Origin: Naegleria gruberi | Taxonomy: Eukaryota | Direction: 5' to 3' (one strand) | DNA: 1,617 nucleotides | Assembly: GCA_000004985.1 (NCBI GenBank) | Contig: GG739370.1 | In this document: one piece after another, positions 1 through 1,617 of the stretch | Layout: the number at the start of each line of letters is the position of its first letter | Position numbering within the stretch: position 1 is the first letter of the stretch | Position numbers and translations under genes: made by a program | Notes under the pieces: model-generated | Seen by the model: only the letters and a program-made list of their open reading frames with translations | What the model was told of the DNA's origin: nothing | The model's database searches: none

Positions 1-328
1 CGTTTTGGAAGATAGTCTTTGCTGTTTCAAACTTCTCATTGAATAACATATAAAATCCTTGAAATTTGTTAAAGTACACAGAATATTTCTTCAACTCATT
101 ACTGGATTCTCCTTCTTTTACATTGAAAACTCCCTTATTACCAAACATGGTGTTGAACACATTCTTAATGTATAGCTCTGTATTATTCATGTCTTTAGAT
201 TCCATTTTGAGAATTTCTTCAAACTTGTCCTCGTTTGTTGCTAAGTGTTGGAAAAAGTTCAACACGAAAAATTCCTTTGGTTTTTCCTTTCTTTCCTTTG
301 TCAAAATCTTCTTTGTATTCGAAACATA
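1..328 (-). other. C-terminal extension beyond the kinase domain, at least 109 aa, continuing past the window edge. No recognisable domain.
   Basis: Same reading frame as the kinase. The translation is YVSNTKKILTKERKEKPKEFFVLNFFQHLATNEDKFEEILKMESKDMNNTELYIKNVFNTMFGNKGVFNVKEGESSNELKKYSVYFNKFQGFYMLFNEKFETAKTIFQN... It starts Lys/Glu-rich and then becomes Phe/Asn-rich. No stop occurs before position 1. Confidence 0.6.
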
Positions 329-1234
329 AAAGTAAAATTGAGCAAGTATTTCCTCCATAATTGCAACAGAAGGAATCCTCTTTGCATGATTCTGAAAACA
401 GGACCACAAGTATGGGACCATATAGCTATTCCTCAATCTTTTCTGATACAAACCATCTGTTACAACTTGATTCTCTTCATCAGTTCCATATAAATGTATT
501 CTTAATTGGTGAGGTTGCAATAGACGAAACGTGGTTGTTAAATCACCAGTTATCATTTGATAAATAATAGCTCCCAACTCCCAAACATCATAAGTTTCAC
601 TATACAATTCAGGTGGAGAAGTAACTTGACCTCCAGACGACAAGTCAATATCACCATCACACATTTTTGGCGGACCACTGTGCATTCTCTCAAAATCTGC
701 CAAAACAATTTTGAGAATTCCCTTTTCCTTATCAAATTCCTCTACTAATAGGTTTGCAAGTGAAATATCTCGATGGATGATTTTCTTTGTTTCGAGGAAA
801 ACAAGAGTATTGGTCAGTTGATAGGCAACCATAAAGATCAGATCCGTTGGAAGACATGTCTCTTCACTGGCAGTCTCATTTTGCAAGACTAGTTGTTCTA
901 AATCACTGAAATATTTTGGCATTTCAATAATCAAGTATTTTTCATAAGGTATTACCTTGTTGATTTTTACAATATTTGGATGATTAATATCTTTTACAAT
1001 TTTAGCAGCTTCATATTCCTTTTCGAACTCTGCTAGTACTTCTGGATCGAGATTTTCAACCATTCGAATTACAACTTTCTCTTTGGAATTGAGGTCTTTA
1101 AGAATTTCAGCCTCAAAGAGAGTTATTTTTATGGTGTTTCTTTCGCCTCTATCAGTTAATTTCTTTGGGGAGGAATAACCCAAAGACTTGAGAAGCTTTG
1201 TCGCTTTGCATTCTTTGGTTTCACTTTCTAACAT
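1..1234 (-). CDS. Eukaryotic-type (Hanks/ePK-fold) protein kinase-like protein. 5' end complete (ATG 1234..1232). 3' end truncated by the window edge, with no stop codon before position 1. Divergent catalytic motifs, possibly a pseudokinase.
   Basis: Manual translation of the minus strand, with codon high-ends at 1234, 1231, ... down to 4..2. The frame holds 411 codons with no stop. An in-frame TAA lies upstream at 1261..1259, so ATG 1234..1232 is the first start. The product begins MLESETKECKATKLLKSLGYSSPKKLTDRGERNTIKITLFEAEILKDLNSKEKVVIRMVENLDPEVLAEFEKEYEAAKIVKDINHPNIVKINKVIPYEKYLIIEMPKYFSDLEQLVLQNETASEETCLPTDLIFMVAYQLTNTLVFLETKKIIHRDISLANLLVEEFDKEKGILKIVLADFERMHSGPPKMCDGDIDLSSGGQVTSPPELYSETYDVWELGAIIYQMITGDLTTTFRLLQPHQLRIHLYGTDEENQVVTDGLYQKRLRNSYMVPYLWSCFQNHAKRIPSVAIMEEILAQFYFYVSN... 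The kinase subdomain landmarks are in canonical order and spacing: HPNIV (982..968), HRDISLAN (775..752), DFE (697..689), SPPE (619..608), DVWELG (589..572), and KRIPSVAIMEEILAQFYF (382..329). A 411-codon open frame in roughly 30% GC DNA is very unlikely by chance. The supplied ORF track misses it, apparently because no stop lies inside the window. Confidence 0.85.
   Translation of the reverse strand, partial: MLESETKECKATKLLKSLGYSSPKKLTDRGERNTIKITLFEAEILKDLNSKEKVVIRMVENLDPEVLAEFEKEYEAAKIVKDINHPNIVKINKVIPYEKYLIIEMPKYFSDLEQLVLQNETASEETCLPTDLIFMVAYQLTNTLVFLETKKIIHRDISLANLLVEEFDKEKGILKIVLADFERMHSGPPKMCDGDIDLSSGGQVTSPPELYSETYDVWELGAIIYQMITGDLTTTFRLLQPHQLRIHLYGTDEENQVVTDGLYQKRLRNSYMVPYLWSCFQNHAKRIPSVAIMEEILAQFYFYVSNTKKILTKERKEKPKEFFVLNFFQHLATNEDKFEEILKMESKDMNNTELYIKNVFNTMFGNKGVFNVKEGESSNELKKYSVYFNKFQGFYMLFNEKFETAKTIFQN
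329..1190 (-). other. Protein kinase catalytic-domain region of the CDS above, roughly residues 15-302 of the window-encoded protein.
   Basis: The region runs from a degenerate Gly-loop-like LGYSSP (about 1183..1166) to the C-terminal KRIP...FYF motif of the kinase fold, ending at 331..329. The residues in between carry ePK subdomain landmarks III through XI: an alphaC-like EFEKEYEAAK, HPNIV, hinge LIIEM, HRD...N, DF(E), (P)PE, D.WELG, and the subdomain XI Arg in KRIP. Confidence 0.75.
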
Positions 1235-1309
1235 TTTTTCTAATAGCTTGTTAGAAACTTATTACAATCTACAAGTTTAAATAGGTTATTATTCATCTCT
1301 TAAAAGACG

Positions 1310-1318
1310 TTTATAAAA
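1310..1318 (-). promoter_or_regulatory. TATA-like element (TTTATAAAA, which reads TATAAA on both strands) about 76-85 bp upstream of the kinase ATG. The start codon sits in an A-rich context (AGAAAAAATGT).
   Basis: Plus-strand tttataaaa lies at 1310-1318, and the minus strand reads TATAAA at 1315..1310. The start context, read on the minus strand, is caagctattagaaaaaATGTTA, with A at -3 and A-rich -1..-6. This is typical of AT-rich eukaryotes such as yeasts and protists. I see no Shine-Dalgarno-like GGAGG. Confidence 0.3.
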
Positions 1319-1361
1319 TATCTCATATTTAAAAGTTTAGAGATTATTGTAAAAGTTATTC

Positions 1362-1583
1362 ATGTTTTCCAATTCTAATTCAAAACTGTCAAATTATTTT
1401 CATTTGAAATATTTTTGTAAACGTGATTTCTATCTCTTGATGTTTTGCACAAATCACGTTGTCGAGATAACAGAATTTCTTCTTCATCATAAATTGCTAT
1501 CAATTAATCCAGCATCAGAGTCTTTGATTGCTTCCAAAAAAAATAGTCTGGAAAAATTCTTCCACTTAAAAATAGACATTTAA
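1362..1583 (+). CDS. Hypothetical small ORF (73 aa), divergent from the kinase gene. Weak evidence; probably non-coding.
   Basis: From the supplied track: MFSNSNSKLSNYFHLKYFCKRDFYLLMFCTNHVVEITEFLLHHKLLSINPASESLIASKKNSLEKFFHLKIDI. GC rises locally to about 32% over 1441-1560, against about 20% in the adjacent flank. The TAA stop at 1581-1583 is followed by aaaaaataaaataaaaaaaa, which contains AATAAA. The protein has no recognisable motif and is partly low-complexity. It overlaps the inverted repeat. Confidence 0.15.
   Translation: MFSNSNSKLSNYFHLKYFCKRDFYLLMFCTNHVVEITEFLLHHKLLSINPASESLIASKKNSLEKFFHLKIDI
1420..1460. repeat. Perfect 10-bp inverted repeat, AACGTGATTT (1420-1429) and AAATCACGTT (1451-1460), separated by a 21-nt spacer. 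A candidate palindromic regulatory site or hairpin in the 5' flank of the kinase gene.
   Basis: Direct read: 1420-1429 is aacgtgattt, and the reverse complement of 1451-1460 (aaatcacgtt) is aacgtgattt. The match does not extend on either side. Each arm carries an ACGT/CACGT core of the bZIP/bHLH (E-box/G-box) type. The repeat lies about 190-225 bp upstream of the ATG at 1234. Confidence 0.55.
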
Positions 1584-1617
1584 TTAAAAAATAAAATAAA
1601 AAAAATGCAGCTAGCAC

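Follow-up and report, generated by a model that had tools for sequence, protein, structure and literature searches.

The question raised by this locus is what a kinase-like protein becomes when its active site departs from the canonical one at several positions at once: a non-catalytic scaffold, an atypical enzyme or a relic. The window, by which we mean the whole 1617-bp stretch that was analyzed, is a complete, unplaced scaffold of Naegleria gruberi (contig GG739370.1) and carries the code for the first 411 residues of a protein specific to Naegleria, which is composed of a degenerate eukaryotic protein kinase (ePK) fold followed by TPR-like helical repeats. An initial annotation made from the sequence of the window had pointed out a catalytic loop devoid of Lys and Arg (HRDISLAN) and a Glu replacing the Gly of the DFG motif (LADFE), and had proposed either a pseudokinase or scaffold or an enzyme that handles nucleotides or cations in an unusual way. 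The comparisons presented here favor that proposal, partly for other reasons, namely an Arg at the β3 Lys position (R57), an Ala at the αC Glu position (A76) and a degenerate Gly-loop. When the sequences of its relatives are aligned, the odd motifs of the window protein appear as a conserved family trait and not as private mutations, and we consider the protein to be probably a pseudokinase scaffold whose pseudo-active site is charged and conserved.

The kinase-like domain and its departures from canonical kinases

The membership of the protein in the ePK fold is supported by profile, structural model and core residues. The only Pfam domain detected is the protein-kinase domain, matched by Pkinase PF00069 over residues 49-232 (53.8 bits vs a cut-off of 31.7) and also by PF07714 (50 bits vs a cut-off of 23.1). 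An AlphaFold2 (AF2) prediction run without alignment scored 36.7 in the predicted local distance difference test (pLDDT) and was set aside; the model obtained from an 80-sequence alignment, which was used instead, reached a pLDDT of 78.3 and a predicted template modeling score (pTM) of 0.77. It displays a confident kinase domain of bilobal fold, predicts unusually long β1, β2 and β3 strands (residues 21-32, 35-47 and 50-61) and ends in C-terminal helices of low confidence. The core residues of the C-lobe are present as well. When structures of the PDB were searched with the single sequence, CDK2 and MARK came out best (~1e-11), and with the family profile ULK1 (9e-21) together with ULK2, followed by STK33, CDPKs, MARK and CDK2.

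The motif columns were read from an alignment of 80 sequences comprising the window protein, four relatives and 75 ordinary (generic) kinases; the resulting features are collected in Table 1. Five features of canonical kinases are missing from the window protein: the β3 Lys, the αC Glu, the GxGxxG loop, the Lys or Arg of the catalytic loop and the DFG Gly. In the N-lobe, the GxGxxG columns read D28-x-G30-x-x-N33, where Gly is found in 62/75, 67/75 and 40/75 of the generic kinases; these positions are not conserved inside the family, and a seven-residue insert follows the remnant. The residue that replaces the αC Glu, A76, is placed at a spacing of nine residues from His85 of the HPNIV motif, the same as in CDK2.

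In the C-lobe, both motifs of the initial annotation were found again on the minus strand exactly where it had located them. The catalytic loop is encoded by cat (775-773), cga, gat, att, tca, ctt, gca and aac (754-752), and DFE by the codons of D (697-695), F (694-692) and E (691-689). S158 occupies the catalytic-loop position +2, which is Lys in 69 of the 75 generic kinases, and A160 the position +4, so that neither residue is basic, as had been claimed, and the Asp and Asn of the loop are indeed kept. The family as a whole carries S/S/T/E/S at +2 and A/S/K/D/H at +4. E182 stands in the DFG Gly column (Gly in 68/75 generic kinases), and Glu is found there in all five family sequences. S158 and E182 occupy canonical columns and these deviations are real; they do not result from chance or sequencing error.

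The initial annotation further considered the rest of the fold well conserved. HPNIV (85-89), PPE (207-209), DVWELG (216-221) and KRIP (285-288) are all present, but the statement holds only for the C-lobe, the N-lobe being degenerate at R57, A76 and the Gly-loop; the two lesions that had been cited, catalytic-loop Lys and DFG Gly, are accordingly only part of the five, the β3 Lys, the αC Glu and the Gly-loop having been overlooked. The residues kept at conserved columns are H154, R155, D156, N161, D180, F181, P208, E209, D216, W218, G221 and R286. Of these, P208, D216 and G221 are invariant across the 80 aligned sequences, and E209 and W218 nearly so. The positions of the regulatory spine (H154, F181, V80 and I91) and the αF residue D216 are likewise retained.

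A Lys migrated from β3 to another strand, as in WNK or POMK, could have compensated for R57. The β1-β2 region of the window protein contains K24, K25 and K36, which are matched by Lys in its near-identical metagenomic copy (see below) but not in the paralogues, and no candidate compensating Lys is conserved in β1-β2; Arg57 itself might compensate. The hinge residue Pro106 was considered as an additional ATP-binding lesion and rejected, as it aligns with the hinge Glu and not with the NH donor, and Pro is found there in 4/75 ordinary kinases.

Table 1. Coordinates of the features of the window (positions 1-1617; generic, the 75 ordinary kinases of the alignment)
Feature	Position	Strand	Residues	Basis or remark
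Partial coding sequence (CDS), EFC35317 / XP_002668061	1..1234	-	411 codons	ATG at 1234..1232, open to the contig end
Eukaryotic protein-kinase-like domain	335..1207	-	about 10-300	
Gly-rich loop remnant DRGERN	1136..1153	-	28-33	β1-β2 turn of an unusually long hairpin
R57 (cga) at the β3 'VAIK' Lys	1064..1066	-	57	Lys in 72/75 generic; Arg in 4/4 aligned family members
A76 at the αC Glu	1007..1009	-	76	Glu in 70/75 generic; family A/A/I/A/A
Catalytic loop HRDISLAN	752..775	-	154-161	His, Arg, Asp and Asn kept
LADFE	689..703	-	178-182	Metal-binding Asp-Phe, then Glu for Gly
Activation-segment end PPE and αF motif DVWELG	572..616	-	207-209 and 216-221	Alignment columns
R286, αH-αI Arg pairing with the APE Glu	377..379	-	286	Arg in 69/75 generic and 5/5 family
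Helical linker and onset of TPR-like domain	1..334	-	301-411	Colinear with P0279 residues 275-375; truncated by the contig end
AT-rich intergenic region (23-27% GC)	1235..1604	.		Composition; common to the CDS and the divergent neighbor

A small Naegleria family sharing the unusual motifs

Relatives were sought with HMMER in an exhaustive scan that covered 1.84 billion representatives, followed by a cluster look-up. The scan returned mostly generic kinases, among which three matches carry the same odd motifs. Two are N. gruberi paralogues: P0061 (NAEGRDRAFT_70853, 325 aa), with VVRVV at β3, HRDIELDN in the catalytic loop and LADFE, and P0279 (NAEGRDRAFT_67864, 658 aa), with HRDITLKN and LADFE. 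The third is encoded by N. fowleri (P0063/P0278, FDP41_008846, 856 aa) and carries VMLRVV at β3, HRDFSLHN and VIDFE; its gene is an ordinary single-exon gene without tandem paralogues. Pairwise BLASTP with the window protein gave 1e-26, 7e-19 (with P0279 represented by its fragment P0074) and 5e-26, at 27-40% identity. Grouped in one cluster with the window protein is P0280 (465 aa), from the 4550-bp ENA metagenome contig L001, which is 96.3% identical to the window at the nucleotide level across all 1617 bases; this copy reads HRDISLSN in the catalytic loop and keeps LADFE.

The β3 Arg, the absence of the αC Glu, the absence of the Lys at catalytic-loop +2 and the DFE motif are common to the L001 copy, the two N. 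gruberi paralogues and the N. fowleri relative. Residues H154, R155, D156, L159, N161, E165, D180, F181, E182, D216, G221, C279, Q281 and R286 are invariant in the family, which also has an 'MPxY..DL' hinge signature. A search of the relatives for a canonical DFG and HRDxK, which would have pointed to strain-specific mutations or errors, came out negative, all of them keeping DFE and lacking the Lys. Since the same odd substitutions recur in the N. gruberi paralogues and in the N. fowleri member at only 25-38% identity, they are best regarded as selected features, and since the independent environmental assembly L001 reproduces HRDISLxN and LADFE, they are not sequencing errors. DFE is thus a family trait that extends to a pathogen, N. 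fowleri.

The copy in L001 also allows the coding part of the window to be compared with its flank. Over the 1233 shared coding nucleotides, the two sequences differ by 17 substitutions (6 synonymous and 11 nonsynonymous) and no insertion or deletion (indel). Over the 383 nt upstream, by contrast, 20 mismatches and 27 gap columns are counted. The divergence amounts to 1.4% in the coding part and about 5.5% mismatches upstream, i.e. ~4x less in the coding part (Fisher p = 2.5e-5).

The tail of the protein is equally a family feature. The last ~110 residues of the window protein align with the start of the TPR-like tail, and a tblastn search of L001 with P0279 indicates that the gene continues colinearly up to ~4158 of that contig, for a protein of roughly 690 aa. 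TPR matches remain below threshold in the tail of P0279 and in the L001 continuation; the N. fowleri protein P0278 has clear TPRs, TPR_1 being matched at 2e-67 and TPR_BSK1_C at 45.3 bits vs a cut-off of 42.2. As judged from these matches, the family architecture is that of a degenerate kinase fold joined to a TPR or TPR-like domain.

Within this tail, and beyond the part covered by the window, a TPR-like repeat of L001 is interrupted at 3476-3490 by a 1-nt frame change with an in-frame TAG at ~3482 (gtt agc tag tca), after which homology to P0279 resumes in another frame for 225 more codons. The frame change reflects either a mistake in the assembly or a truncation of very recent date; a short intron was considered and rejected, as the only GT..AG interval there spans 9 nt.

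The family appears confined to the genus in the databases covered: no relatives outside Naegleria were found in the exhaustive HMMER scan, in JGI metagenomes or in viral contigs. The JGI scan with the family profile yielded no close relatives (≤34% identity over short stretches) and mainly bacterial kinases combining HRDISLxN with DFG; the viral contig scan found nothing, and there is therefore no sign of a giant-virus origin. A word-indexed search with the window protein retrieved only the protein itself and generic CDPK-like kinases, and the same search with P0279 only a Trichomonas CAMK (E = 7e-4); with the family profile, this type of search missed even members of its own query alignment. 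A literature search for the gene identifiers found no paper mentioning these genes. The window protein thus belongs to a small, lineage-specific and previously undescribed family of a well-known class.

Scaffold, atypical enzyme or relic

A protein of kinase fold is defined as a pseudokinase by the absence of at least one of three residues, the β3 Lys, the HRD Asp and the DFG Asp (PMC13519141). The window protein falls under this definition because R57 occupies the β3 Lys column, the HRD Asp and the DFG Asp being present. The two lesions cited in the initial annotation lie outside these three residues and therefore do not define a pseudokinase, and DFE alone proves nothing, as DFE or DFD occurs in the active WNG1, MNK1/2 and LanKC. 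WNK and POMK, in which the Lys has migrated, are cautionary cases (PMC13519141).

With R57 added to the other lesions, a pseudokinase scaffold is the probable nature of the protein. Its kinase-like domain would act as a non-catalytic, rigid docking or switch module, and its TPR-like tail would recruit partners, as in other kinase-fold scaffolds. The invariant charged residues R57, D156, N161, D180 and E182 would make up a self-contained site for a salt bridge or a cation, where, by analogy with WNG1/BPK1 and POMK, an Arg57-Glu182 pair might take over from the canonical Lys-Glu(αC) pair; Glu182 would block the DFG flip, and the two lobes would thereby be held together. Pseudokinases account for at least ~10% of kinomes, and families restricted to one lineage come to light regularly, so that a predicted pseudokinase in Naegleria is in itself an ordinary finding.

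Several observations nevertheless weigh against a scaffold. D156, the catalytic base, the metal ligands N161 and D180 and the extra E182 are all invariant; such invariance, seen in the aligned sequences, would exceed the needs of a purely structural scaffold and would fit a protein that binds nucleotide or metal, or even one that is catalytic. Among active kinases, WNG1 has DFE and no Gly-loop, and WNK lacks the β3 Lys. The family sample is small, with four independent sequences and one near-identical copy. Finally, the dN/dS of the window relative to L001 is 0.44, a weak hint of constraint that is not significantly below 1 (binomial p = 0.097, 17 substitutions).

The first of these observations leads to an atypical but active kinase, which we regard as rather unlikely and yet as the main rival explanation. 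Glu182 would provide an extra Mg2+/Mn2+ ligand, Arg57 would contact the phosphates and the extended β1-β2 hairpin would stand in for the Gly-loop, in a manner comparable to WNG1 and LanKC. The β3 Arg is strictly conserved, without drift, and the quartet of D156, N161, D180 and E182 has been maintained in a family of such low overall identity. Several known proteins lend weight to this reading: the Toxoplasma kinase WNG1 is active without a Gly-loop and with a Glu for the DFG Gly, and is inactivated by E457G/A; RNase L, with DFD, binds Mg-ATP by both acids (PMC6442604); and both MNK1/2 (DFD; PMC3326643) and ThurKC (DFE; PMC10604976) are active. Kinases of the type found on metagenome contig L019, which combine HRDISLxN with DFD and the loss of the αC Glu while their Gly-loop and β3 Lys are intact, hint that the association of Ser and an acidic residue can be that of functional enzymes. 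However, WNG1, MNK and LanKC all keep the β3 Lys, whereas in the Naegleria family it is replaced, four further catalytic or ATP-positioning elements are gone at once and no compensating Lys is conserved. The β3 Lys-to-Arg change is moreover the classic kinase-dead substitution.

A unifying interpretation, which remains unlikely, would treat the β3 Lys to Arg, αC Glu to Ala and DFG Gly to Glu changes as one coordinated rewiring, by which the ion pair bridging the lobes moved from β3-αC to β3-DFE. The outcome would be an αC-independent kinase fold in which the DFG flip is impossible and which is permanently closed; a cation or nucleotide could be bound via D156, N161, D180 and E182, whether as a cofactor for structure or sensing or to support residual catalysis. 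Uncharacterised environmental eukaryote-like kinases show partial versions of this core (HRDISLxN and DFD, no αC Glu, Lys kept); if the interpretation is true, the motifs would represent a recurrent alternative design of the active site and not decay.

It is improbable that the odd motifs reflect neutral drift in a paralogue that is decaying or has lately been inactivated, or that the gene is an oddity of assembly on a tiny orphan scaffold. The gene is incomplete and its scaffold unplaced, the substitution pattern relative to L001 does not depart significantly from neutrality, and the frameshift and TAG of the L001 copy are located just past the part covered by the window. On the other side, 411 codons are read without stop or indel in an AT-rich genome, the coding part is less diverged and free of gaps when compared with its upstream region, and the odd residues are the family consensus, N. 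fowleri included, with an independent environmental assembly in agreement. The comparison with L001 argues against both sequencing error and advanced decay, and the opinion of the initial annotation that this is not a decaying gene is upheld, if not strongly.

Least probable is a kinase fold repurposed for other chemistry in the style of SelO, SidJ or POMK (AMPylation, glutamylation, phosphorylation of small molecules or glycans): conservation of an Asp/Asn/Asp/Glu cluster in the absence of the canonical residues that position ATP is a pattern that can hide alternative activities, and POMK is likewise acidic at the DFG-Gly position (PMC13519141), but similarity to those families in sequence or fold never rises above that to generic kinases and no positive evidence was found.

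The locus and related kinases

The minus-strand open reading frame (ORF) of the window runs without stop over its 411 codons and leaves the contig at base 1-2; its translation is 100% identical to EFC35317 / XP_002668061, labelled 'predicted protein, partial'. This partial CDS is colinear with positions 2087-3320 of L001 and with the paralogue P0279. The deposited gene model counts 371 aa and terminates at Asn371 (AAT at 124-122 on the minus strand; feature at window 119-124); the GTAAAAG right after it was apparently taken by the annotators for a splice donor whose intron leaves the contig. As the sequence past Asn371 is colinear with L001 and P0279, the frame simply seems to stay open there for 40 codons or more. 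The GC content of the window ranges from 23 to 40%, and Rfam and tandem-repeat scans of it gave no matches.

The AT-rich region upstream of the CDS presumably holds the promoters of two divergent genes. On the plus strand, window positions 1605-1617 read ATG CAG CTA GCA C, the first codons of a divergently transcribed neighbor. In L001 this neighbor is represented by a 420-aa ORF starting with MQLAPELQ (473-1735, minus strand), whose sole Pfam signal is a sub-threshold match to Rad51 (E = 0.0072, 16.1 bits vs a cut-off of 22) and which contains a degenerate Walker-A-like 'GNEGQGITQ'.

The scans brought up other unusual kinases. Contigs L003, L012, L019, L060, L061 and L076 of metagenome JAESGV01 encode eukaryote-like kinases with HRDISL[C/S/D]N and DFD. 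In L019, where the N-lobe is present, the Gly-loop and β3 Lys are normal and a Gly occupies the αC-Glu column; there too, an acidic DFG+2 residue goes together with the absence of both the catalytic-loop Lys and the αC Glu. L003 and L076 encode in addition ~10 C-terminal 'GA(D/N)xWNxGL' repeats. In bacterial-looking contigs of human gut metagenomes (L023, L036-L050), a kinase with HRDISLDN...LIDFG is accompanied by a second one with HRDISPDN...LIDFG ~2 kb upstream, and the pair looks like a recurrent tandem of putative Hanks-type kinases that both lack the catalytic-loop Lys. A 567-aa ORF of L069 (1864-3564, contig Ga0207055_1006) has HRDISLPN, 'GDLE' for DFG and a long unannotated N-terminal region; it apparently carries an Arg at β3 ('TACVRLEN') and may be another independent protein combining a β3 Arg with an acidic DFG+2 residue. 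P0056 (2911 aa) and P0057 (1305 aa) are arrays of 10 and 5 tandem tyrosine-kinase-like domains, or poly-(pseudo)kinases; several of these domains have another motif in place of DFG and a degenerate catalytic loop (HLSFSARS, HGNLSAVK, HGNLTARN, HRYLSASN). Finally, P0002 of Tetrahymena malaccensis (ABPG74_015546) is CDPK-like with EF hands, has DWG for DFG and reads HRDISLKN, in which the +4 residue is basic like that of tyrosine kinases.

Comparison with known systems

With ULK and CAMK-like Ser/Thr kinases, the Naegleria family has in common the HPNIV, HRDxxxxN, DxWSxG and R(αH-αI) motifs. Its architecture recalls that of the plant BSKs (RLCK-XII), which are scaffolds made of a kinase fold and TPRs (PMC6336344): the N-terminal degenerate kinase domain is followed by C-terminal TPRs in BSKs and in the N. 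fowleri relative, and by tails with sub-threshold TPR matches in P0279 and the L001 continuation, of which the window includes only the first part, and the passing TPR_BSK1_C score of the N. fowleri relative is a BSK-like feature. The kinase domains are not specifically related, however, as the family profile favors ULK1/2, STK33, CDPK, MARK and CDK over the RLCK/IRAK-Pelle clade. The Naegleria protein, which starts with MLESE, also has no Gly2 for N-myristoylation. Because the two belong to different eukaryotic supergroups, the resemblance is most likely convergent, and the association of kinase fold and TPR appears to have arisen independently of plant BSKs.

Another scaffold pseudokinase, KSR1/2, has exchanged its β3 Lys for Arg and still binds ATP. 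Unlike the Naegleria protein, KSR retains the Gly-loop, the DFG motif and the αC Glu, belongs to the RAF family and carries other accessory domains.

The WNG family (WNG1/ROP35 and the pseudokinase BPK1) is similar to the Naegleria family in being lineage-restricted and protist-specific, in lacking a functional Gly-loop and in carrying DFE. In WNG1 and BPK1 the Glu of DFE forms a salt bridge to a basic residue on β3 (PMC6442604), and the contact suggested above between R57 and E182 is of this kind. Several differences stand out: a helix replaces β1 and the Gly-loop in WNG, whereas the model of the Naegleria protein predicts an elongated β1-β2 hairpin; WNG1 keeps the VAIK Lys, the αC Glu and other catalytic motifs that the Naegleria family has lost; and WNGs, which are secreted, lack a TPR tail. 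No specific similarity in sequence to WNGs was detected: the best 60 PDB matches include neither a WNG nor a BPK1 chain, and no direct comparison was run.

DFE is rare but not new. Class III LanKC kinase domains conserve it (PMC10604976), and in POMK the Asp of DLD pairs with a β2 Lys in place of the αC Glu (PMC13519141). The acidic DFG+2 residue fulfils diverse roles in these proteins, biasing the DFG conformation in MNK, acting as metal ligand in RNase L and forming an ion pair with a basic residue of the N-lobe in POMK or with nearby basic residues in ThurKC. MNK, LanKC and POMK possess a Lys that positions ATP, and they are active as enzymes; none of MNK1/2, RNase L, POMK and LanKC joins DFE to a β3 Arg and to the loss of both the αC Glu and the catalytic-loop Lys, and a TPR-like tail is absent from all four. 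By losing the Lys/Glu pair and gaining an Arg/Glu pair while conserving the catalytic Asp and the metal ligands, the Naegleria family offers a clean natural test case of whether an acidic DFG+2 residue can replace the αC Glu, an idea for which WNG1/BPK1 and POMK are so far the only precedents.

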